Below, one piece after another: positions 11,931 to 59,100 of a stretch of 64,000 bases of DNA. Position numbers and translations under genes: made by a program. The notes beneath the pieces are model-generated. The model was not told where the DNA came from. It worked only from the letters and a program-made list of their open reading frames with translations, and made no database searches. Location: NCBI GenBank assembly GCA_046346665.1, contig JAXMHQ010000030.1:747-64746 (forward strand). Reading direction: 5' to 3'. Within the stretch, counting starts at the first letter, position 1. The number at the start of each line of letters is the position of its first letter. This DNA is from Verrucomicrobiota bacterium. Its GTDB lineage: Bacteria; Verrucomicrobiota; Verrucomicrobiia; Limisphaerales; JAXMHQ01.

Positions 11931-13298
11931 GTGGTTTGGGTGGCGATGGCGGTGTTGGGTGCCGGCCTGGTTTCGGGCCGGGGCGGGGTGGAAATCTGGA
12001 TCACTCCGGCGGGGAACGGCGGCGGGAGCGGGACATGCGCGGATCCATTCAGTGCGCCGGACGCGGACGGTTTCTTCAATCTGATTCACGATCAGCGGGT
12101 GGTGAACGGGACGAATTACGTCATTCCGCCCGCATCCGGTTCTGCATTTGATGCCGGGTAAATTCACGGTCGGGACGGGGAAAGGTGCGCGGGCATCAGC
12201 GGTATTGTTTGACGCTGAAGAACAATTGGAAAGTGCGCGGGGCGGGGATGGATGTGACGGTGCTGCGGTTGCAGGATCATGTGGCGGGGCCGGCCCGGGG
12301 CAGCGCGGCGGCTGGAGATGATTCGTGGCGGCGGCAGCTCGCCGGGGGACGCGGCGGACTGGCCGGTGGACGGCGCGGAGATTTCGGACCTGACGGTCGA
12401 CTGCAATTTGCAGAACCAGTCGAATCTGTGTGTGGACGGCGTGACGCCGGCGGGCTCGCGGAACCGGGTGAGCCGGGTTCGGGCGATCAACTGGGGGACG
12501 ACGAGTACGGATGAATGTTTCGTGTTCAGCGTGGGATCGCACTGGCGGGTGCGGCCGGAGGGATATCACGAGGGCGTGATCGAGGATTGCGTGGCCGACA
12601 AGCCGGCGCCGATCGTGCACAAGGACGGGACCAGCGCGTTCATGCTGTCGGGGAACGGTCCGTGGGAGGGCGGCAAGGTGGGGACGGCGGACCGGGATGC
12701 GGGCGGCTGGGTGTTGCGGAACTGTTCGGTGCGCGATGTGACGACGGGGCGCGGGCCGGGCCAGCCGCATGGCTTCCATGCGTTCGGCGCCGTGGGCCGC
12801 GGGTGCGACATCGTCGGGAATTTTGCATTGAACGTCACCGGCAAAACCGGCGGTGAAGCGTCCGCGATCTATTGCGATTCCTTCGACGACCAGGACATCA
12901 CGATCCGGGACAACACGCTGATGAACGTGAATTTCGGGATTTCCTACAATTACTCCGCGAACAACCTCACGAACCTGGTGATCCGGGACAATCTGATCAC
13001 GGTCTCGAACGGCGGCGTGGGCATCTATCTTTACAACGTGGATGACCCGACGCTGAGCCATGTGATGCGCGGGGTGTTGATTTCCGGCAACCGGGTGTAT
13101 CCGCATCACACGGGCGCATCCTGTGAGGCGTTGATCATGCGCGGGGCGATCGAGGCGGTGGTGCAGGATAATTTGCTGGACGGCGGGGCGCCGCCGAAAG
13201 GGCGGGCGGCGGTGATCCCGGAGGTTTACCGGCCGAAGCTGCAGGTGTTTTCGTTCCAGAACAACCGGAACCTGGCGGGGCAATTGATTCAGCCTTAA
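11931..13298 (+). pseudogene. Secreted right-handed beta-helix (pectate-lyase-fold) protein, N-terminal part frameshifted
   Basis: Signal-like MVWVAMAVLGAGLVSG in frame 0. Plausible continuation VLHLMPGKFTVGTGKG in frame 1. LTLKNNWKVRGAGMDVTVLRLQD in frame 2. Then a long frame-0 ORF (12279..13298) with repeated IRDN/ISGN beta-helix rungs. Confidence 0.6.
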
Positions 13299-13391
13299 CC
13301 ACGGATGTAAACGGATAAACACGGATTGAACCCCTGCCAGCCCTCGATTCTGCCTATTTCCATCCGTGTTGATCCGTGTCTATCCGTGGTT
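13297..13391. repeat. Family-B inverted pair (hairpin) at a gene 3' end
   Basis: AACCACGGATGTAAACGGATAAACACGGATT ... CATCCGTGTTGATCCGTGTCTATCCGTGGTT. The stop codon TAA at 13296-13298 lies in the left arm. Confidence 0.85.
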
Positions 13392-13427
13392 GAAAGGAAT
13401 GGTTCCGGCCCGAGGTTAAAATGAGGC

Positions 13428-14865: not shown

Positions 14866-14976
14866 GTTGCAGGTTGCAGGTTGCAGGTTGCAGGTTTGGC
14901 CAGGACCCGCGCTTCGACAAACCGCACCGCATTTCAAACTCGTCTGTTTTTTAACCCTGCAACCTGCAACCTGCAA
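14866..14976. repeat. (GTTGCAG)4 / (CTGCAAC)3 heptamer-array hairpin
   Basis: GTTGCAGGTTGCAGGTTGCAGGTTGCAGG at 14866-14894 is complementary to CCCTGCAACCTGCAACCTGCAA at 14955-14976. The loop is about 60 nt and contains a T6 run. Confidence 0.85.
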
Positions 14977-14992: not shown

Positions 14993-15559
14993 ATGATTAA
15001 AGGCCTGATATTCGACTGCGACGGCACGCTGGCGGACACGATGCCGCTGCATTGGCGGGCGTGGCAGATGGTGACGGCGCGGCACGGATTGCATTTTCCC
15101 GAGGACCGGTTTTACGCGCTGGGCGGGGTGCCGTCGCGCGACATTCTCAAAATGCTCGCGACGGAGCAGGGGCGGTCGCTGGATCATATCGCCATCGCGC
15201 ACGAGAAGGAGGAGCTTTACCTGCCGCTGCTGTCGCAGGCGGAGCCGATCCATGCCGTGGTGGAGATCGCGCGATCCAATTACGGCAAGCTGCCGCTGGC
15301 GGTGGCGTCGGGCGGCACGCAGGCGATCATCTGCCAGGTGCTGGATCATTTGAAGATCCGGAATTTGTTCGACGCGGTGGTGACGAACGAGATGGTGAAG
15401 AACCAGAAGCCGGCCCCGGACATTTTCCTGGAGGCGGCGCGCCGGATCGGGGTGGAGCCGCGGTTTTGCCGGGCTTACGAGGATACCGAGCTGGGATTGC
15501 AGGCGATCCGGTCGGCGGGGATGGAGGCGGTGGATGTGAGGAACTTGGTTAAGATTTAA
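14993..15559 (+). CDS. HAD-superfamily hydrolase (beta-phosphoglucomutase-like)
   Basis: MIKGLIFDCDGTLADT (DxDGT motif), ...VASGG..., ...KPAPDIFL.... The stop codon TAA lies inside a Family-D heptamer array. Confidence 0.8.
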   Translation: MIKGLIFDCDGTLADTMPLHWRAWQMVTARHGLHFPEDRFYALGGVPSRDILKMLATEQGRSLDHIAIAHEKEELYLPLLSQAEPIHAVVEIARSNYGKLPLAVASGGTQAIICQVLDHLKIRNLFDAVVTNEMVKNQKPAPDIFLEAARRIGVEPRFCRAYEDTELGLQAIRSAGMEAVDVRNLVKI

Positions 15560-16031
15560 GATTTGAGATTTGAGATTTGAGATTCGAAGGCGGGCTGTCA
15601 TCCTTTTTAGCCTGCTCATATTTTCGCCTGGAGGCCGCTGTCAGGTGCCTCGGTCCGCAGATATTCGAGTTCTGCAACGAATCAGCCCAGGCGCGCAATT
15701 GGCGCGAGCAGCTTTCAGCGGAGGATTTCAAGTTTGAAATCTCGGATTTAAGATCGGCAGCCCACGGGCGCCGATGGAGTAAGCAGAGCATGGAACGCAC
15801 TTCACCAGCGGAACCGCGGGCGATATAGATGAATTGCAGCAGTTCTTTGGTGGTACCTCGCTCAAACCCCTCGGCAATATTGTTCGAGACGGAAAGGACG
15901 GCGCGCTCCAATTGGTCCCGAAACGAGGCGCGCAGGCGCGGAGGTGCCCGCTGCAGTAGTTCGTCGGTTTGTCCAAAAAGTGTTTCCGCCTTTTGCCATA
16001 CGGGCAAATCTTCGAATCGTTGATAGGTCAT
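15549..16031 (-). CDS. Four-helix-bundle protein (23S rRNA intervening-sequence / Avd-like family)
   Basis: MTYQRFEDLPVWQKA...SVSNNIAEGFERGT.KE..QFIYIARGSAGEVRS, the family signature. Contains an internal [10 protein letters not shown] and a C-terminal SNLKSQISNLKS, both encoded by heptamer arrays. Confidence 0.75.
   Translation of the reverse strand: MTYQRFEDLPVWQKAETLFGQTDELLQRAPPRLRASFRDQLERAVLSVSNNIAEGFERGTTKELLQFIYIARGSAGEVRSMLCLLHRRPWAADLKSEISNLKSSAESCSRQLRAWADSLQNSNICGPRHLTAASRRKYEQAKKDDSPPSNLKSQISNLKS
15551..15586. repeat. Family-D heptanucleotide array (GATTTGA orientation on + strand)
   Basis: AAGATTTAAGATTTGAGATTTGAGATTTGAGATTCG. Overlaps the ends of both convergent genes. Confidence 0.9.
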
Positions 16032-16112
16032 GCCGTTCCCTTTCTTCCCCATATCCCAGGCATATCACCCAAACCTGCCTGCTCTTGGAGTCGCACGAGT
16101 ATTCTCTGCCTC

Positions 16113-16146
16113 CAATCTCAAATCTCAAATCTGAAATCTCAAATCT
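16113..16146. repeat. Family-D heptanucleotide array (TCAAATC orientation on + strand)
   Basis: CAATCTCAAATCTCAAATCTGAAATCTCAAATCT, directly downstream of the proC stop. Confidence 0.9.
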
Positions 16147-16150
16147 TTCC

Positions 16151-17012: not shown

Positions 17013-17260
17013 AACCACGGATGGACACGGATGGACACGGATAGGGGACGAAGACCTGGACGCGAATTGACGCGAATACTGGGAGGGCCGGCGTCCTCGC
17101 CGGCCCAAACATCCGTTTGACATGGCAAATCCGTCGGAACCCCGAGCGGAACAACTCAGATGGGGACGGCGAGGACGCCGTCCCTCCCAGAGAATTAGCG
17201 GCAATTCGCGTTAATTCGCGTCAAAGTCTTATCCGTGTTCATCCGTGTCCATCCGTGGTT
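17013..17260. repeat. Nested palindrome B - L - A ... A' - L' - B'
   Basis: AACCACGGATGGACACGGATGGACACGGAT (17013) pairs with ATCCGTGTTCATCCGTGTCCATCCGTGGTT (17231). GACGCGAATTGACGCGAAT pairs with ATTCGCGTTAATTCGCGTC. GGGAGGGCCGGCGTCCTCGCCGGCCC (17081) pairs with GGGGACGGCGAGGACGCCGTCCCTCCC (17162). Confidence 0.9.
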
Positions 17261-17307
17261 AAATTTAAACAAAACGAAACGCGGCCAGCGTCCTCTAATT
17301 GACCGAG

Positions 17308-17874
17308 ATGCCGGACGAATCCGAACTGGAGCGGTTGTATGACGAACACGCGCAGGCGTTGTTCGGGTTCCTGCTGAATTTGACGAGGGACGAGGCGGAC
17401 GCGCGGGATGCGTTGCAGGAGGTGTTTGTGAAACTGGCTCGGCAACCGGGATTGCTGAAAGGAGTAAGGGAGCCGCGGGCGTTCCTGATCCGAATGGCGC
17501 ATGGCGCGGCGATCGACGCGATGCGCCGCCGCGGCGTGCGGGAGAAATACCACGAACAATTCAGAGCCGAACAGGCCGGCATGTTTGCGCCTGCTGAAGA
17601 CCCGGATGCCCAGGCGTTCCGGGATTCGGTCTCCGCCGCCATGGGCGAGCTGCCGCCGGAACAAAGGGCGGTTCTTCATCTGAAACTCTGGGAGCGGCTG
17701 ACGTTCGAACAGATCGCGGAGGTCCTGGAAATCTCCCCAAACACCGCGGCCAGCCGGTATCGGTACGGGCTAGACAAATTGCGGTCGCAGTTGCGTCCAC
17801 TTTATGACGAGATCACGGCCTTGAAATCTCAAATCTCAAATTTCAAATCTCAGATCAAAGGAAGCAAGGCATGA
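17308..17874 (+). CDS. ECF-type RNA polymerase sigma-70 family factor
   Basis: Region 2 DARDALQEVFVKL and region 4 LTFEQIAEVLEISPNTAASRYRYGLDKLR. The C-terminal tail ALKSQISNFKSQIKGSKA is encoded by a Family-D array. A TTG alternative start exists at 17299. Confidence 0.8.
   Translation: MPDESELERLYDEHAQALFGFLLNLTRDEADARDALQEVFVKLARQPGLLKGVREPRAFLIRMAHGAAIDAMRRRGVREKYHEQFRAEQAGMFAPAEDPDAQAFRDSVSAAMGELPPEQRAVLHLKLWERLTFEQIAEVLEISPNTAASRYRYGLDKLRSQLRPLYDEITALKSQISNFKSQIKGSKA
17821..17856. repeat. Family-D heptanucleotide array inside the sigma-factor 3' end
   Basis: TTGAAATCTCAAATCTCAAATTTCAAATCTCAGATC. Confidence 0.9.
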
Positions 17875-21000: not shown

Positions 21001-21106
21001 ATATAAAAAAGTCGAGCGTCCAGAGTCGAGGGTCGAGAGCCTGCAACCGCGTCGTTCACGTGCGTCAGGCACTCGACGCTCGACGTTCGACTCTCGACCG
21101 TTTTGT

Positions 21107-22923: not shown

Positions 22924-23262
22924 TTAGCTCCGATGTTCGCAAGCCGCTTCCCGGGAATTTGAAATTTCAAATTTCAAATTTGAAATTCCGCCTTCCGGCG
23001 GCACGGGATCATATCCGCAGCCGCCCCACGGATGGCATCGGCAGAGGCGGCGGGCGGCGAGGTCGGAGCCGTGCAGCGCGCCGTGGATGCGGATGGCCTG
23101 GGCGGCGTAATCGGAGCAGCTCGGGGTGAAGCGGCAGCGCGAATAGGGGCCGAAGAGCGTGGCGAGAGCGGGGGAAACGGTCCAGCGATAAATGCGGATC
23201 AAGAGCAGGAGCGCGCGGGAAGGCAGAAGGCAGAATGTGGAATGCAGAAAAACTCCGGTCAT
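22924..23262 (-). CDS. yidD: Membrane protein insertion efficiency factor YidD (C-terminus extended through a repeat)
   Basis: [16 protein letters not shown]...[18 protein letters not shown]......[17 protein letters not shown]. The tail [12 protein letters not shown] is encoded by a Family-D array. Confidence 0.8.
22954..22988. repeat. Family-D variant array (GAAATTT/CAAATTT)
   Basis: GAATTTGAAATTTCAAATTTCAAATTTGAAATTCC. Confidence 0.85.
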
Positions 23263-23303
23263 GCGGAGCGGCGTTTTCTGCATTCTGCATTCTGCATTCT
23301 TCA
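23222..23303. repeat. Family-E (GCAGAAT)n / (ATTCTGC)n hairpin enclosing the yidD start codon
   Basis: GGCAGAAGGCAGAATGTGGAATGCAGAAAA pairs with TTTTCTGCATTCTGCATTCTGCATTCTTC. The yidD ATG (complement of 23260-23262) sits in the loop. Confidence 0.85.
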
Positions 23304-23672
23304 TTTCTTCAAAAGTCCTGTTCGTCCGAAGATGCCGAGGAAATCCGATTCCACATCGGCGAATTGTTTTCCGGCGATTGAGTTTCGGGCGACCAGGACG
23401 AGGTCGAGGGGCTGGCTGATCTCGTATTGGTGGCGGCGGAACACTTCGCGCATGAGCCGTCGGGCGCGGTTGCGGACGACGGCATTTCCGATTTTGCCGG
23501 AGGTGACCACGCCGAGTCGCGAGCCGGAGCCTGGGGGCAGGGCGAGCCAGTTGGCGATCAGGCAGCCCTGGACGCGCCGTTCGCCGAGCTTCCGGATCCG
23601 GGAAAAATCCCGGCCCAGTTTCAGGCGCATTCCGCGGGGGAAGCGCAGGGGCCCGGGCGCGGTGGCGGCCAT
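23301..23672 (-). CDS. rnpA: Ribonuclease P protein component
   Basis: [26 protein letters not shown] motif. Located between rpmH and yidD. Confidence 0.85.
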
Positions 23673-27426: not shown

Positions 27427-27433
27427 TCTGAAT

Positions 27434-27587
27434 GGAGTGGTGGAGTGGTGGAGTGGTGGAGTGATCGGCAGCGTCGTAATCGACCTCGAGATCAAAGGGA
27501 CCAGCGACCAAAAGGACATAAGTGACTCAAGGGACCAAAGGGACCGGTCCCATTCAATACTCCGGAACTCCTGCACTCCAATACTCC
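27434..27587. repeat. Octamer-array imperfect hairpin (GGAGTGGT)n ... (ACTCC-rich)
   Basis: GGAGTGGTGGAGTGGTGGAGTGGTGGAGTG on the left; CATTCAATACTCCGGAACTCCTGCACTCCAATACTCC on the right. The centre carries GGGACC repeats and GGGACCGGTCCC. Confidence 0.65.
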
Positions 27588-27597
27588 GTTTCGGGCA

Positions 27598-28816
27598 CAG
27601 GGCTCACGCATTAAAAGATTTTTGAAGGAGGGACGATTTTTGTCTGTACTTTGTAAATACAATGCGTACATGAGGCGGGATGCAAAAGCATCCAAAGTTG
27701 AGTTTGATCACGATTCTGAAAGAAGTGCCGGACCCGCGAATGGATCGGCGCAAACTGCACGCGTTACCTGACGTGCTGAGTATTGCCATCTGCGCGCTGC
27801 TGTGTGGGGCCGATAGTTTTGAGGACATGGAGGTTTTTGGGGAAGCAAAGTCGGAGTGGTTCGAGAGCTTTCTGGAGCTGCGCCACGGCATTCCCAGTCA
27901 CGATACGTTCAACCGGGTGTTTGCGGCGATGGATCCGGAGAAGTTTCTGGAGTGCTTCATGCGCTGGACGCAGAGTCTGCGAGCGGCCGTGGCGCAGGAG
28001 ATCGTAGCGCTGGATGGCAAAGCACTGAGGCGGGCGATCAACAAGGGGGATTGCCCCAAAGTGGTGATCAGTGCTTGGGCGGCAGACAACGGTCTGGCGT
28101 TGGGTCAACTCAAGGTCGATGACAAGAGCAACGAGATTCGGGCGGTGCCCAAGCTGTTGCGAGCCTTGGAACTGAGCGGATGCATTGTGACGCTGGATGC
28201 GATGGGCTGCCAAAAAGAGATAGCCAAGGAAATCAAAGAAGCCGATGCCGATTACGTTTTGGCGCTCAAAGGCAACCAGGGGCAGACGCACCAAGAGGTC
28301 AAAAGCTATTTGGATGACGCTATCAGCCGCCAGGCCAAGGAACTGGCTTACGCGGAAGTCGTGGACAAAGGGCACGGGCGCCTGGAGGTGCGGCGTTATT
28401 GGCAAAGCGGCCGGCTTGATTGGTTTGAGGATCGAGAGGCTTGGGAGGGTTTACAGAGCGTGGGTGTGGTCGAAGCAGTGCGCGAGATTGGGGGGCAGCG
28501 TACGGTGGAGCGGCGCTATTATCTGAGCAGCTTGAGTCTGGACGTGAATCGGTTCGCCCGTGCCATCCGCAGCCATTGGAGCATCGAGAACCAGTTGCAC
28601 TGGGTTTTGGACGTCAATTTTAACGAAGACCAAAGCCGGGCGCGCAGCGGCTACGCGTCCGAGAACCTAGCGACATTGCGCCGTTGGGCGCTGAATCTCA
28701 TCAAAACCGATACGCAGAAGAAAAAGCGCAGTTTGAAGGGCCGAATGAAGGCCGCTGGCTGGGACAACCGATATTTGCTCCATCTCCTGGGCTTAGATTT
28801 TAATGCGTGAGCCCTG
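27598..28816 (+). mobile_element. ISAs1-family insertion sequence, apparently intact
   Basis: 19-bp perfect terminal inverted repeats CAGGGCTCACGCATTAAAA (27598-27616 and the complement of 28798-28816). Flanked by a direct repeat GTTTCGGGCA (27588-27597 and 28817-28826). Visibly lower G+C than the flanks. One transposase ORF. Confidence 0.85.
27680..28810 (+). CDS. ISAs1-family transposase (H-repeat-associated, DDE)
   Basis: N-terminal L..V.DPR...RKLHALPDVLSIAICALLCGADSFEDME.FG and ...VALDGKALR..., ...TLDAMGCQKEIA..I....ADYVLALKGNQ.... The stop lies inside the right inverted repeat. Confidence 0.85.
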   Translation: MQKHPKLSLITILKEVPDPRMDRRKLHALPDVLSIAICALLCGADSFEDMEVFGEAKSEWFESFLELRHGIPSHDTFNRVFAAMDPEKFLECFMRWTQSLRAAVAQEIVALDGKALRRAINKGDCPKVVISAWAADNGLALGQLKVDDKSNEIRAVPKLLRALELSGCIVTLDAMGCQKEIAKEIKEADADYVLALKGNQGQTHQEVKSYLDDAISRQAKELAYAEVVDKGHGRLEVRRYWQSGRLDWFEDREAWEGLQSVGVVEAVREIGGQRTVERRYYLSSLSLDVNRFARAIRSHWSIENQLHWVLDVNFNEDQSRARSGYASENLATLRRWALNLIKTDTQKKKRSLKGRMKAAGWDNRYLLHLLGLDFNA

Positions 28817-38121: not shown

Positions 38122-38259
38122 CGCGGAATGCGCCATTCCGCACTCCGCATTCCGCACTTGAAGGTGGGGCGAGACTCCGTCGAGCCCTCTCTGAGATTTC
38201 AAATTTGAAATTTGAGATTTCACATCTAAAGTCAGGGCTCGACGGAGTCTCGCCCCACC
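38122..38259. repeat. Module string E - C - D - C'
   Basis: GCGGAATGCGCCATTCCGCACTCCGCATTCCGCACT. Then AAGGTGGGGCGAGACTCCGTCGAGCCC. Then TGAGATTTCAAATTTGAAATTTGAGATTTCAC. Then AGGGCTCGACGGAGTCTCGCCCCACC. Confidence 0.9.
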
Positions 38260-51799: not shown

Positions 51800-52786
51800 T
51801 CAGAAATTTAGAAACTCCTCGCAACAGGCGAAGAATTCCTTGCGTGTGGCGACGCGGCGGATGCGGTGGAGGAATTGGTTTTCCGGATCCACACCGATGC
51901 CGACGTAATTCATGAATTTCTTCATGCGCTGGATCTGTGAGAATTCCGGGATGCCGGGATCGCACATCGTTTCGTAAAGCGCGAGGATATAATCCTGCAG
52001 ATCGCGGCCGCGCGGCTTGAAAGCCTCCTCGCCGCGCAAACGCTTCCGGATCTGGTCGAACAGCCACGGATTCCGGATGGCGCCGCGGCCGATCATGAGT
52101 CCGCGCGCGCCGGTGGATTTCAGAATGGCGGCGGCGTCTTCGGCGGAAAACACGTTCCCATTGGCCAGGACGGGGCAGGGCATGGCTTGCACGGCTCGGG
52201 CGATGTCGTCGTAATGCACCACGTCCTGGTACATCTCCTTGACGGTGCGGCCATGAACCGTGAGAAGGTCGAGCGAATGGCGCGCAAAGATCGGGAGCAA
52301 TTCGTCGAAGACGGCCCGTGAGTCGAAGCCGACGCGGGTTTTGACCGTGAACGGAATTTGAATTGCGTCGCGCAGGGCGCCGAGAATGGCGTCGACCCGC
52401 GCGGGTTCGCGGAGGAGACCGCCGCCGGCGCATTTGCGGTAGACGACGGGCGCCGGGCATCCGAGGTTCAGGTCGATGGCGGCGACCGGGTAGTGTTGAA
52501 GTTCACGCGCGCTGCGGACGAGGTTCGGGATGTCGTTGCCGATGAGCTGCGCCACGACCGGCCGGCCCGTGGGATTTTCCGTCACGGATTTTAGAATGTG
52601 CCGGTTCAGCAACGAACCCGGGTAGACGCGGAAATATTCCGTGAAATAAACATCCGCCCCGCCGTAACGCGCCATGAGTCCCCAGAAATCGCGATCCGTC
52701 ACGTCTTGCATGGGCGCGAGGGCGAGCATCGGCTCAGGCCGTTGCAGCAGGGCGCGGAATGTTTCTATTGGATTCACTTCCTCCAA
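51800..52786 (-). CDS. tRNA-dihydrouridine synthase
   Basis: LAPMQDVTD, IDLNLGCPAP (catalytic Cys), VHGRT.... Confidence 0.85.
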   Translation of the reverse strand: MEEVNPIETFRALLQRPEPMLALAPMQDVTDRDFWGLMARYGGADVYFTEYFRVYPGSLLNRHILKSVTENPTGRPVVAQLIGNDIPNLVRSARELQHYPVAAIDLNLGCPAPVVYRKCAGGGLLREPARVDAILGALRDAIQIPFTVKTRVGFDSRAVFDELLPIFARHSLDLLTVHGRTVKEMYQDVVHYDDIARAVQAMPCPVLANGNVFSAEDAAAILKSTGARGLMIGRGAIRNPWLFDQIRKRLRGEEAFKPRGRDLQDYILALYETMCDPGIPEFSQIQRMKKFMNYVGIGVDPENQFLHRIRRVATRKEFFACCEEFLNF

Positions 52787-52823
52787 TCTGAGATTTCAAA
52801 TCTCAAATCTCAAATCTCAAATC
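52784..52823. repeat. Family-D heptanucleotide array
   Basis: CAATCTGAGATTTCAAATCTCAAATCTCAAATCTCAAATC. On the minus strand it supplies ...DLRFEI plus the stop codon of the upstream gene. Confidence 0.9.
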
Positions 52824-53684
52824 GGGCGCAAACTGCCGATGAGACTTCAACTGCGCCGCCGTCTCGGCAGTGAGCGGCGATTGTCGGTAGACCGGGGTCC
52901 GCATCGGTTCGGCGCTGCCCGACCGGAGCGCGCGCTCGAGCCAGCGCGCGTTCAGCGGTTCCTCCAGCAGGTCCAGCCGGTTCGCCGCCACCGTGGTTTC
53001 CTCCTTCAACCCCGAAGGATGACCCGCACCGACGAAGAATCCGCCCAGCAACATCGCCACGCGCGCCAGGGTGCTGCGCGTGAACGTGGCCAGCGCGCAG
53101 GGCCGGGCCGGGTCCAGGCAGCGATGCAAATTCTCGAACAAGCCGGCGGTCCACATCGCCGGGTTTTTCGCCGGGGAATGCGGGTCGAACAGGATCGCGT
53201 GCGGCGGCGGCAGCCGGGAGGGCGCGCTTTGGATCAACTCGGGGAAATCGCCGGGCTTGAACGTCCAGGCCACTTCCACTGAGCCGGTTTGCCAATGCGC
53301 CGTTCCGGTTCGAACCAGTTCACCGACCGCCGCTTCGTATCCGGCCAGGTAAGGAAGCCGGCCGGCGTGGGCGAGAGCAAATTCGGCGGCGGCGGTGGTG
53401 TGATCGAAGCTGACCACGCGCAGCGTTCGGTTTGAAGGGATTTCGCGGCTGAGAATCCGGAGCGCGGTGACGGCGTTTGCTGCGGCGCCAAGGCCCACAT
53501 CCCAGATCACGAAGTCGCCGGTCGCCGCGGCGACACGGTCCACGAGCCGGAGCTGCCGGACGTAAAGCTCCTCGGCTTCGGCGGCCGGGCCGATGGCGGG
53601 ATGAAAAGCCTCGGCATCGGCCAGGGAATAGACCGCGTGAACGCCGCCCTTGAGCGAAACCAGTTTGTAGGCGGGATCCGGCAT
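52803..53684 (-). CDS. MnmC-like SAM-dependent methyltransferase domain protein (DUF752-type)
   Basis: VIWDVGLGAAANA and AILFDPHSPAKNPAMWT resemble the MnmC C-terminal methyltransferase domain. ATG 53684 chosen because the sequence upstream is a Family-A repeat. Confidence 0.65.
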   Translation of the reverse strand: MPDPAYKLVSLKGGVHAVYSLADAEAFHPAIGPAAEAEELYVRQLRLVDRVAAATGDFVIWDVGLGAAANAVTALRILSREIPSNRTLRVVSFDHTTAAAEFALAHAGRLPYLAGYEAAVGELVRTGTAHWQTGSVEVAWTFKPGDFPELIQSAPSRLPPPHAILFDPHSPAKNPAMWTAGLFENLHRCLDPARPCALATFTRSTLARVAMLLGGFFVGAGHPSGLKEETTVAANRLDLLEEPLNARWLERALRSGSAEPMRTPVYRQSPLTAETAAQLKSHRQFAPDLRFEI

Positions 53685-53689
53685 GTTGT

Positions 53690-53747
53690 GGGACGCCGGG
53701 GACGGCGTCCCTCCCGGGAAGAGGGAGGGCCGGCGTCTCGCCGGCCC
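53690..53747. repeat. Family-A double module
   Basis: GGGACGCCGGGGACGGCGTCCCTCCC then GGGAGGGCCGGCGTCTCGCCGGCCC. Confidence 0.85.
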
Positions 53748-53757
53748 AGACATTTCC

Positions 53758-56125: not shown

Positions 56126-59100
56126 TGAATTTGAAATCTGAAATCTCAAATTTGAAATCCGACAGCGGCCGCCGTTACTGGCGCAGCCTGGACGAGGTGT
56201 CGGAGTCGCCCGAATTCCGCCAGTGGCTCGAGCGCGAATTTCCCGAAGGCGCCAGCGAATGGACCGACCCGGTTTCCCGCCGTCATTTCGTCAAGATCAT
56301 GTCCGCCTCGTTCCTGCTGGCCGGCCTCGGCCTGGCGGGAAGCGGCTGCCGCCGCCCGGTGGAAAAACTCGAACCATTCGCAAAGCAGCCGGAGGATTAC
56401 GTCTACGGCACCTCGCAGTATTACGCGACCGCGATGCCGACCCGCACCGGCGCGGTGCCGGTCCTGGCCAAGTCCTACGAAGGCCGCCCCGTCAAGCTGG
56501 AGGGCAACCCGCTCTTCCCCGGCTCCAACGGCGGCAGCGATCGCTGGGTCCAGGCGTCGATCCTGAATCTCTACGATCCGGACCGTTCGCGGCGGTTCGT
56601 GAAGGGCGGCACAAACGCGACGCTCGAAGCCGCGCTGGATTTTCTGTCGGAACTGTCCCGCCAGGCGCAGGCGTCGGGCGGGCAGGGGCTGGCGATCCTG
56701 CTCGAGCGCAGCTCGTCGCCCTCCCGCGCCCGGCTCCAGAAACAACTGCGCGCCCGGCTGCCGAAGGCGAAATGGTATTTGTTCGAGCCCGTCGATTTCG
56801 ACGTCTCCCGCCGCGCCGCGTCGCAGGCCTTCGGCGCCTCCGTCCGGCCCGTGTTCAAATACGACGCCGCGAAGGTGATCGTGTCGCTCGACTGCGATTT
56901 CCTGGGTTCCGAGGAGGACCTGCACAATTCCATCCGGCAATTTGCGAAGGGCCGGAAGATTGAGAAGCCGACGGACTCGATGAACCGGCTGTATGTGGCC
57001 GAGAGTCTCTACACGCTGACGGGCGTGAACGCGGATCACCGGCTGCGGCTCCCGGCGGGCGCCGTCGGCCAGCTCGCGGGCGCTTTGGCAGCCGCGGTGA
57101 AGGGCGACAGCTTCACGCCTCCGGCGGGCGTGGAGGCGAAGTGGATTTCCGAGTGCGCGAAGGATCTTGCGTCGAACGCCGGCAAATCGCTGGTGGTGGC
57201 GGGATACCGCCAGCCGCTCGAAGTGCACGTGCTGGCGATGCAACTCAACGCCGCGCTGGGCAACGCGGGCGCGACGATCGATTTCCTGCCCGAACCCGAG
57301 CCCGCGGAATCCTCCATCGCCGACCTGGCCCAATCGCTGAACGCGGGCGAGGTGGACACGCTCGTGATGCTGGGTGGCAACCCGGCTTACACCGCGCCGG
57401 CCCCGCTCGAATGGGCCAAGGCGCAGGCCAAGGCCAAAAGCGTCGTCCGGCTGGCCTATTACGAGGACGAAACGTTCGAAGCCACAAAACGCGCCGGCGA
57501 CTGGCACCTGCCCGCGGCGCATTACCTGGAATCCTGGGGCGACGCCCGCACCTCGGACGGCACGCTGGTGCCGATCCAGCCGCTGATCGCGCCGCTGTTC
57601 AATGGCCTGACAGAAATTGAGCTGCTCGCGCGGCTCGCGGGCGAGAGCGTGACGAGCCCCTACGAAATCGTGCGCGCCGGATTTTTCGAAGCCGCCGCCG
57701 GCCGTTCCGGGTCGCCCGAGGTCCTGTGGTCGAAGTTCCTGCACGACGGGTTCCTCGGGGATTCCGCCGCGCGTCCCGTGGAAGTGCGCGCGGCCGGCGC
57801 GCTGAACGCCGCCGCTGTCTCCGCGGCGCCCGCCGTGTCGGTCGATGCGCTCGAAGTGGTGTTTTACCGGGATCCGAAGCTGGACGACGGGCGTTACGCG
57901 AACAACGGCTGGCTGCAGGAACTGCCGGAGCCGGTCAACAAACTGACCTGGGACAACGCGGTGGTGATGAGCCGCAAGACGGCGCACGACTTGCGCGTGA
58001 AGAATTTCGACGTGGTGGAAATCCAGCTCGGCGGCCGGACGGTGAACGGCCCGGTGTGGATCCAGCCCGGCATGGCCGATTACAGCCTGGCCCTCGCGCT
58101 CGGTTACGGCCGCGACAAGGCGGGCCGCGTCGGGTCCGGCGTCGGGTTCAACGTCTACCCGCTGCGTTCGGGATCGGAATTCATTGCCGCCGGCGCCAAG
58201 GCGCGCCCGCTGGGCCGCACGTTCGAGCTGGCGACGACGCAGCATCACTGGTCGATGGAAGGCCGCGGCGTGGTGCGCGAGGCGACGATGGAGCTTTACC
58301 GCGAGCACCCGGATTTCGCCCAGAGGGAAAAGCTCGAGGAGCCGCCGATCGTCACGTCGCTGTATCCGAATCCGCTCAAGAAAGCGGAGGCGGCGGGGTT
58401 GCACCAGTGGGGGATGGCGATTGATTTGAATTTGTGCGTGGGCTGCAACTCCTGCGTGCTGGCCTGCCAGAGCGAGAACAACATCCCGATCGTCGGCAAA
58501 GACCAGGTGCGGCGCGGCCGCGAGATGGCCTGGATGCGCATCGACCGTTATTTCGCGGCGGACCCGGCGAAGGCCCGGCTGCCGGACATGCTGAAGACCG
58601 ACCAGGAACAGCAGTTCGAGGAATGGATTGACGATCCGCAGGCGGTGGTGCAGCCGATGCTCTGCCAGCATTGCGAGGCGGCCCCGTGTGAAAACGTCTG
58701 CCCGGTCAACGCGACCGCGCACGACAACGAGGGCTTGAACGTGATGGTTTACAACCGGTGCGTCGGCACGCGGTATTGTTCCAACAACTGTCCGTACAAG
58801 GTCCGCCGGTTCAATTACCTCGATTTCAACAAGCGCCCGTTGAAGGACCTGAACGGCCCGTTCTACACGACGCCGCTGTTGCACAGCACGGAAGGCCACT
58901 GGGACCTGCTCACGTGGTGGAAGGATCCCACCAGCCCGACCGCGGGCATGCGGCCGTCGGACGAATGGGACCTGATCAAGATGTCGAAAAACCCGGACGT
59001 CTCGGTGCGCATGCGCGGCGTCATGGAGAAATGCACGTTCTGCGTGCAGCGCATCGAGCAGGCCAAGATCGCGCAGAAAGTCAAAGCCGGAGAGTCGGGC

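Follow-up and report, generated by a model that had tools for sequence, protein, structure and literature searches.

Why should the same seven nucleotides, repeated a few times in tandem, stand at one gene junction after another in a bacterial genome, and how did they come to be there? The question is posed by a stretch of 64,000 nucleotides (the window) of a Verrucomicrobiota bacterium (GenBank assembly GCA_046346665.1, contig JAXMHQ010000030.1, positions 747 to 64,746 of the forward strand), in which an array of GATTTGA heptamers, or TCAAATC on the other strand, lies at 52784 between an mnmC-like methyltransferase gene and dus and is one of eight such arrays. The original prediction, made from the letters alone, took the unit to be selected for its coding properties, since one strand stops translation in every frame and the other is open in all of them. 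We think it probable (roughly 0.7) that the solo arrays are instead arms, or solo or collapsed derivatives, of a cassette that carries a gene for a four-helix-bundle protein and colonizes operon junctions, and that the effects on coding are incidental. The window contains one complete cassette, the same protein lineage and heptamer family occur together in many phyla, and arrays have been inserted at junctions that are otherwise bare.

Eight arrays, three of them in one cassette

The repeat family can be written ARATYTS (GATTTGA, TCAAATC or AAATTTS), a pattern that is self-complementary after rotation. Only three positions distinguish a GATTTGA from a TCAAATC unit, and forms between the two, such as AAATTTG and AAATCTG, are frequent. 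When the window was scanned for at least three ARATYTS units with no more than two mismatches, exactly eight arrays were found, at the eight positions first listed, and none was found in shuffled sequence. All have a period of 7 and four to six copies, and they stand out as sharp A+T-rich islands in a window of about 62 % G+C. Genes were assigned by G+C content at third codon positions (GC3) and Pfam, and by this annotation seven of the arrays lie at gene boundaries, as had been proposed for all of them, with the eighth inside the four-helix-bundle gene. Several are mixed in orientation (22952, 38188, 56126 and the inner end of 52784).

Three of the eight form a single structure, at 15549-16148 on the minus strand after proC, which consists of an upstream arm, a PF05635 four-helix-bundle gene, an array internal to that gene and a downstream arm (Table 1). 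The upstream arm begins 3 nt after the proC stop codon (TAG) and the four-helix-bundle open reading frame (ORF) about 80 nt further on, and the tail of the gene reads through the downstream arm, which on the plus strand supplies, within its first variant unit, the stop codon (TAA, 15557-15559) of a convergent HAD hydrolase gene whose product ends ...NLVKI. The cassette is thus flanked by proC and the HAD gene and does not interrupt a helix of 23S rRNA. In the window copy the outer arrays are inverted and pair over about 45 bp in both minimum-free-energy and centroid RNA folds (z −4.6). The ORF matches the profiles PF05635 (E-value, 4e-23) and TIGR02436 (E-value, 1.5e-21), and members of its protein family are about 165-180 aa long with a conserved segment ARGSAGEVRSML. 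No second copy of the protein was found in the window by tblastn, nor did Pfam scans of small ORFs reveal four-helix-bundle genes in other repeat-rich gaps of the window.

The association of gene and repeat extends far beyond this genome. With residues 1-91 of the protein as query, a segment from which the internal array is left out, one scan of species-representative genomes yielded 80 loci from distinct species that encode relatives 59-81 % identical; these come from at least five phyla, including Verrucomicrobiota, Acidobacteriota, Nitrospirota, Thermodesulfobacteriota, Methylomirabilota and others. ARATYTS arrays are present within −250 to +800 nt of the gene in 72 of the 80 (upstream in 61, internal in 65 and downstream in 53), which amounts to 2.5 arrays per kb close to the gene; the rest of the flanking sequence has 0.116 per kb. 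Control sequence totalling 280 kb, made up of 80 metagenome loci of related organisms that were fetched with Dus, contains no ARATYTS array (Poisson P about 7e-15). The median gap from the upstream array to the start codon is 18 nt, and the downstream array starts, in the median, 3 nt short of the point where the stop codon ends, so that the gene is tightly bracketed. Its surroundings vary, with 47-53 different neighbouring genes among 74-77 cassette loci. The general cassette would thus comprise an array, a gap of about 18 nt, a PF05635 gene of about 165-180 aa with a four-unit internal array, and a second array over the stop codon.

Gene and unit also change together. Of the 68 loci whose flanking arrays are of the same family, 61 have an internal ARATYTS array, against four of the 12 other loci (P 8e-5, a value inflated by relatedness), and the few loci whose arms have other units (TGAACTC, ATAGCCA or GGAATYT) have no internal ARATYTS array; the Pyrinomonadaceae loci, with GGAATYT-type arms, are among them. 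At one locus (L077) the internal segment has shifted toward the unit of its own arms. In six Pyrinomonadaceae loci with the same neighbouring genes (L042, L053-L056 and L068) the arm unit has drifted from TGAAATT to TGGAATT, CTGGAAT and GAAACTT while the arrays are still tandem, and one of them (L054) has both unit types in a single array, a pattern that points to concerted evolution of the units within arrays. More distant four-helix-bundle genes on Nostoc and Riemerella plasmids are also bracketed by short-period arrays in inverted orientation, each with unit types of its own. Relatives were absent from phage records, and on plasmids only distant ones (<40 % identity) were found, so that no vector for spread across phyla is identified.

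One neighbourhood recurs. In 12 of the 80 loci (L006, L007, L009, L010, L014, L015, L017, L024, L029, L030, L036 and L074) the cassette lies between cas4 and cas1 of a CRISPR-Cas operon; for L015 the Pfam matches are Cas_Cas4 (E-value, 4e-20) and Cas_Cas1 (E-value, 2e-91). Array-encoded, in-frame inserts such as GASTSNLKSDISDLKSLRP and GRESEISDFKSQIEE occur within Cas4 and Cas1 of L015 and L030. These loci fit the entry '23S rRNA IVP' among the CRISPR-associated domains of a 2023 survey (PMC10910872).

Empty sites, deletions and the array at 52784

For mnmC-like/dus we compared 31 distinct orthologous junctions from metagenomes, with Dus proteins 65-76 % identical. None of the 31 contains an ARATYTS array; in 15 the spacer is only 12-15 nt and the upstream protein ends HPQF-x-stop, and three have other units (GTCCAAA, GATGCTG and TCTTTGCA). 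The mnmC-like protein of the window ends ...HRQF-APDLRFEI-stop, with about 45 nt added over the ancestral stop codon, and by this comparison the 52784 array is a lineage-specific insertion of about 45 nt. At the sigma/anti-sigma junction the sigma orthologue ends ...LRPLYEEIK, followed by TAA and directly by the ATG of the anti-sigma gene, and the window copy carries 18 additional array-derived residues.

The proC junction, the site that tells most, could be followed in relatives whose ProC is 78-80 % identical to that of the window. The window and L170 have the full cassette, and L169 and L171 a copy that has lost 318 nt by deletion. Elsewhere there is a solo ARATYTS array in L163/L164 and L167, a GCAGAAT/ATTCTGC hairpin pair in L161 and L166, a GAAGATG hairpin pair in L168, a GATGCGT array in L172 and nothing in L165. 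L169, L170 and L171 have identical ProC and flanks 99.1-99.5 % identical (L169 and L171 are the same), and thus come from one species. Relative to L170, the deletion in L169/L171 is clean; its ends are in the upstream arm and the internal array, with 17 nt common at the junction, and it removes the start codon and helices 1-3. What is left is a hybrid array, followed by the last (3′) third of the gene with its downstream arm. Arrays thus recombine with each other, and cassettes decay to array-only remnants.

Two further observations concern this junction. A gene for an AI-2E-family transporter (PF01594, about 410 aa) lies between proC and the HAD gene in relatives L161-L171 and is absent from the window, which has the cassette only; L172 also has no transporter gene, and its GATGCGT array occupies a 47-nt spacer. 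The L170 gene (3382-3948) lacks five helix 2 residues (ERAVL) of the window protein, and its ORF does not end at the downstream arm but continues across it as far as the beginning of the following gene; this copy may already be decaying.

These comparisons bear on a plainer account, in which the arrays would be neutral or phase-variable microsatellites, expanded in place by strand slippage in AT-rich stop-start junctions and maybe switching expression by copy number. Short-period arrays of many unit types do fill the intergenic gaps of the window, ancestral junctions are AT-rich (GAAATCAAATAAATG at the sigma/anti-sigma junction, for example), and units drift among species at an orthologous locus where the arrays stay tandem. 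We nevertheless find this most improbable, because one protein lineage is accompanied, across at least five phyla, by a single degenerate unit family, which is absent from the 280 kb of control loci. Array lengths, which the original prediction suggested might vary among strains, are identical in the three assemblies of the L169-L171 species, and, as far as contigs that end inside the array (31-mer repeats) can show it, also at the contig ends of four metagenome runs, in which no indel is seen. With only four to six units, moreover, the arrays are short for efficient slippage.

The array at 52784 has no gene within it. Tandem Repeats Finder places it at 52781-52823, with a period of 7 and 6.1 copies, and four perfect TCAAATC units occupy 52796-52823 of the plus strand. 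Read in the sense of the genes it consists of CCC, four GATTTGA units, one flipped unit (AAATCTC) and then GATTGGAGG, and the junction of forward and reversed units is predicted to form a small RNA hairpin (z −3.9). Its inner edge (CCTCCAATCT, plus strand) is identical to that of the cassette upstream arm at 16109, and the array resembles a cassette emptied of its interior. The last six codons of the mnmC-like gene (DLRFEI) and its TGA (52803-52805, three units in) are inside the array, and the GTG start of dus is 2 nt after a GGAGG at the inner edge. Insertion here would have overwritten the mnmC-like stop codon, adding an eight-residue tail (APDLRFEI) and a new TGA, and would have placed GGAGG beside the dus start. 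The GGAGG was considered as a Shine-Dalgarno sequence for dus and dropped, as it is 2 nt from the GTG and the orthologues have no Shine-Dalgarno sequence there; promoter and terminator readings were likewise dropped after a scan around 52784 gave no such site. In four wastewater/activated-sludge runs (X1-X4, Logan contigs) contig depth is 195-1880x over the array region (52776-52843), where loose ends are heterogeneous, and 3-10x on either side, from which the heptamer family appears to be very abundant across loci or organisms in such metagenomes.

Solo arrays such as this one would be left behind, or seeded, as cassettes come and go, much as solo long terminal repeats (LTRs) or empty hairpins are. 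Several points weigh against the cassette origin and should be set beside the evidence for it. The cassette encodes no recombinase or transposase, and no target-site duplication is evident. The 52784 array is without any remnant of the four-helix-bundle gene, and its descent from a cassette, as opposed to independent seeding, is a conclusion we draw from family identity and the proC example. Cassettes may insert into pre-existing arrays and not leave arrays behind. Inverted arms like those of the window are a minority among the 80 loci, so that a simple model of hairpin arms fails for some copies. The far-flank control spans only about 2.5 kb around each cassette, and as the 80 loci are phylogenetically related the P values overstate their independence.

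Table 1. ARATYTS arrays of the window and the genes at the cassette and at 52784
Feature	Position	Strand	Remarks
Cassette downstream arm	15549..15589	-	TCAAATC units in gene sense; GATTTAA/GATTTGA on plus strand
Four-helix-bundle gene	15549..16031	-	PF05635 23S_rRNA_IVP / TIGR02436; 160 aa from ATG 16031
Internal array	15723..15755	-	Inside four-helix-bundle gene; degenerate; encodes 11 residues starting helix 4
Cassette upstream arm	16109..16148	-	GATTTGA-type units in gene sense, ending GATTGGAGGC
Solo array, open orientation	17818..17860	+	Read as last 18 residues of ECF sigma factor
Solo array, near-palindromic, mixed orientation	22952..22990	-	Between yidD and yidC; read through as YidD tail
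Mixed ARATYTS array	38188..38230	.	Loop of perfect 26-bp inverted repeat from another repeat family
dus, dihydrouridine synthase	51800..52777	-	PF01207; GTG start 52777
Solo heptamer array	52780..52826	-	Between mnmC-like gene and dus
mnmC-like S-adenosylmethionine methyltransferase gene	52803..53753	-	PF05430
Mixed ARATYTS array	56126..56164	+	actA/actB junction; supplies actB start region (12 residues)

What, then, of the coding properties? The arithmetic of the original prediction is right: the GATTTGA strand meets TGA in every frame within 7 codons, and the TCAAATC strand is open in all frames and encodes S-N-L-K-S-Q-I, with E in place of Q from a variant unit ending in G. It is also the case that the HAD and mnmC-like genes take their stop codons from arrays and that arrays in the open orientation are read through, as tails of the ECF (extracytoplasmic function) sigma factor, YidD and the four-helix-bundle protein and as the head of ActB. 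The sigma factor gene (17299-17874) thereby acquires the tail ALKSQISNFKSQIKGSKA, with the array just upstream of the anti-sigma ATG (17871), and the actB ATG (56125) is at the edge of an array that shares 27 nt with the internal-array consensus from four-helix-bundle genes.

From these facts one might argue that the arrays are purpose-built translational insulators, their unit selected, as had been proposed, for a three-frame stop on one strand and coding neutrality on the other. We give this very little weight. Orthologous genes terminate normally without arrays, at mnmC-like/dus junctions with bare spacers and at the sigma junction with its adjoining TAA and ATG, and proC has retained a TAG of its own, 3 nt ahead of an array in the stop orientation. 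Orientation relative to genes, for which a bias had been expected, is mixed: co-directional junctions of the window have three arrays in the stop orientation and three open or mixed, and beside the 80 cassettes the commonest layout has all three arrays open (direct R-R-R). Other array families of the window, such as GTTGCAG, are without stops on either strand, and in the TAACTGA repeats of other bacteria the same property has been explained as a constraint on repeat survival, by where insertions are tolerated (PMC4679880). A cassette origin with a filter of survivorship would account for the coding pattern in another way. Solo arrays would persist only where they are harmless, a stop-orientation array only at the end of a reading frame, with an overlap of no more than 18 nt, and an open-orientation array where it can be absorbed as a short tail or head; such a filter would produce the pattern that was first noticed.

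The internal array and the Avd-like protein

A model of the protein made with AlphaFold2 from a 71-sequence alignment is a four-helix bundle (mean predicted local distance difference test, pLDDT, 89), in which helix 4 starts with the array-encoded residues 93-103; these make up its N-terminal half and have a pLDDT of about 98. As to the claim that the repeat peptide is a coiled-coil heptad, this stretch of 11 residues is predicted to be helical and the peptide has the I/L spacing, but the tails on other proteins, at 7-18 residues or only 1-2.5 heptads, are too short to argue for coiled coils. The closest matches to the fold are 2GSC, 2RLD and the Avd chains of the diversity-generating retroelement (DGR) complex 8UBE/8UB7, the last with a TM-score of about 0.8 (normalized to the target) at a sequence identity of just 13-14 %.

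Conservation of the internal array goes beyond its peptide. In a codon alignment of 73 homologues, the ten internal-array codons were compared with the remainder of the same genes. Serine is encoded by TCT or TCA in 91 % of cases in the array and 17 % elsewhere (P 4e-61), lysine by AAA in 92 % and 53 %, asparagine by AAT in 94 % and 33 %, and aspartate by GAT in 92 % and 39 %; GC3 is 0.35 in the array and 0.69 elsewhere in the gene. The array codons thus almost all end in A or T, like the array itself, whereas the other codons of the same genes follow high-G+C usage. Since it is synonymous sites that are conserved, the sequence is maintained as DNA or RNA and not for the peptide only, and this could come about through selection for some function of the nucleic acid or through recurrent gene conversion by the neighbouring arrays. 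Because the internal copy is conserved in this manner, we suppose that the arrays in general may be maintained as nucleic-acid elements, through concerted evolution (gene conversion among arrays) or through recognition by the Avd-like protein.

A live rival to the cassette reading would make the arrays a regulon: cis-acting sites in mRNA or DNA that the Avd-like protein binds, tuning the translation, processing or stability of the downstream gene, with the arms and internal array of the cassette serving autoregulation and the solo arrays marking other regulated junctions. Such an arrangement is compatible with a mobile origin. Conservation of the internal array at synonymous sites across phyla, arrays that end about 18 nt before start codons, a fold family that includes Avd, an RNA-contacting scaffold of the DGR ribonucleoprotein, and the joint change of lineage and repeat unit (GGAATYT-type arms in Pyrinomonadaceae, the internal segment of L077) would all suit it, and translational regulation was proposed for the TAACTGA repeats by MacGregor (PMC4679880). 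We consider it unlikely all the same, since orthologous junctions work without any array, since arrays lie in either orientation and so present differing RNA sequences, and since in most of the sampled contigs of one species the 5′ two thirds of the gene have been deleted and the arrays kept. A search for RNA-seq runs with this organism or its cassette gave none.

The ARATYTS arrays are not the only short-period repeats of the window, which has dozens of further arrays with units of 7-10 nt and unrelated types, often as inverted pairs in intergenic gaps. Inverted pairs of GTTGCAG/CCTGCAA, GAAGGCA/TTCTGCA, CACGGATGRA/ATCCGTGTYY and AGTCGAG/CTCGACG occupy such gaps with no gene in the loop; pairs of this kind lie at 14866-14976, 23219-23305, 13296-13393, 17016-17257 and 21010-21098, among others. 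The TTCTGCA/GCAGAAT family is found at the rnpA/yidD junction of the window as well as at the proC junction of L161 and L166. One repeat family can be nested in another: the array at 38188 is the 44-nt loop of a perfect 26-bp inverted repeat (38164-38189 and 38234-38259; GGTGGGGCGAGACTCCGTCGAGCCCT and its complement). A DDE transposase gene (DDE_Tnp_1 and DDE_Tnp_1_assoc, 27680-28810) adjoins an array of the 8-mer TGGAGTGG (27433-27463).

Known repeat systems and intervening sequences

Tandem heptamers between bacterial genes have been recognized for decades, and units of 7 nt are in general excess there, but there is no agreement on their origin or function; the PF05635 'four helix bundle' genes, for their part, are among the commonest small bacterial genes that are still uncharacterized. 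Intergenic heptamers with their stop/open property are known already, as are the PF05635 ORFs of hairpin-flanked 23S rRNA intervening sequences. In literature searches on the unit sequence, and on a link of PF05635, four-helix-bundle or intervening-sequence proteins with tandem repeats, we found no description of the association. At this locus the repeats and the PF05635 genes come together, in that one repeat family and one protein lineage travel jointly across phyla, and the link offers the concrete hypothesis that heptamer repeats are the arms and remnants of cassettes. It also provides specifics that can be tested, namely an internal repeat copy conserved at synonymous sites and a strain-level deletion caught between two arrays, and it raises the biochemical question of whether an Avd-like protein binds its own heptamer. 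For annotation it carries a warning, since tails and heads such as ...DLRFEI, ...ALKSQISNFKSQIKGSKA and the 12-residue head of ActB are repeat-derived additions and not conserved features.

The short tandemly repeated repetitive (STRR) heptanucleotides of heterocystous cyanobacteria are intergenic tandem heptamers of several unit families per genome, whose function has been unexplained since the 1980s-90s. Their units are G/C-rich (CCCCAGT, for example) and the family is defined in cyanobacteria, whereas the unit here is ARATYTS, distinct from STRR1-3 as from TAACTGA, and its hosts are Verrucomicrobiota-like and other non-cyanobacterial phyla. No link of STRR sequences to a specific gene was found in the literature searched; a likeness lies in the Nostoc plasmid, where a four-helix-bundle gene has inverted G/A-rich and C/T-rich short-period arms.

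Another comparison is with TAACTGA heptamers, which form intergenic direct repeats in marine Beggiatoaceae, in Cyanobacteria and in part of the Bacteroidetes (MacGregor, 2015; PMC4679880). They too have a 7-nt unit in two to six tandem copies, are dispersed and mostly intergenic, often just upstream of start codons, and in the forward orientation stop all three frames, overlapping gene ends by no more than 18 nt, while the reverse complement is translatable; their patchy distribution across phyla likewise suggests horizontal transfer (PMC4679880). They differ in unit and in phyla, and the account of them has no mention of a four-helix-bundle or intervening-sequence gene (PMC4679880). The ARATYTS unit is, unlike theirs, nearly self-complementary, so that arrays can be mixed in orientation and fold on themselves.

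Intervening sequences that bear ORFs interrupt the 23S rRNA genes of Leptospira, Coxiella and others and are excised from the transcript by RNase III. Their proteins belong to the same PF05635 family (2GSC, 2RLD), and the window gene similarly lies in the loop of a long predicted stem of inverted repeats. The cassette differs in standing at protein-coding operon junctions, in having arms that are tandem heptamer arrays and often direct, and in encoding a protein that has a C-terminal extension of about 50 aa and whose gene contains an internal array. The DGR accessory protein Avd (8UBE, 8UB7) has the four-helix-bundle fold and is a scaffold that contacts nucleic acid, by analogy with which binding of the arrays by the cassette protein is plausible. 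There are, however, no template or variable repeats beside the cassette gene, and no reverse transcriptase among the ORFs scanned near it, where the neighbours are HAD, proC and prfA.

A more general picture can be drawn, although only tentatively, and we think it rather less probable than otherwise: an Avd-like lineage with its cognate heptamer arrays might be a self-propagating system that spans phyla, its protein serving to maintain, mobilize or regulate the arrays by acting on them at the RNA or DNA level. STRR, TAACTGA and similar repeats could then be footprints of many such pairs, and the ORF-bearing 23S rRNA intervening sequence a special case.

A parallel in behaviour is with elements whose short copies are dispersed between genes and tied to a single gene family, often forming hairpins, as are the repetitive extragenic palindromic sequences and their paired form (REP and REPIN) with the associated transposase RAYT, and with solo LTRs. 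The ARATYTS repeats are tandem arrays without a GTAG-type palindrome, their associated gene is not a known recombinase, and no RAYT/HUH transposase was found among the scanned ORFs of the window. What they share with these elements is the solo copy that stays behind when recombination between repeats deletes the interior, as seen in L169 and L171 when they are set against L170.

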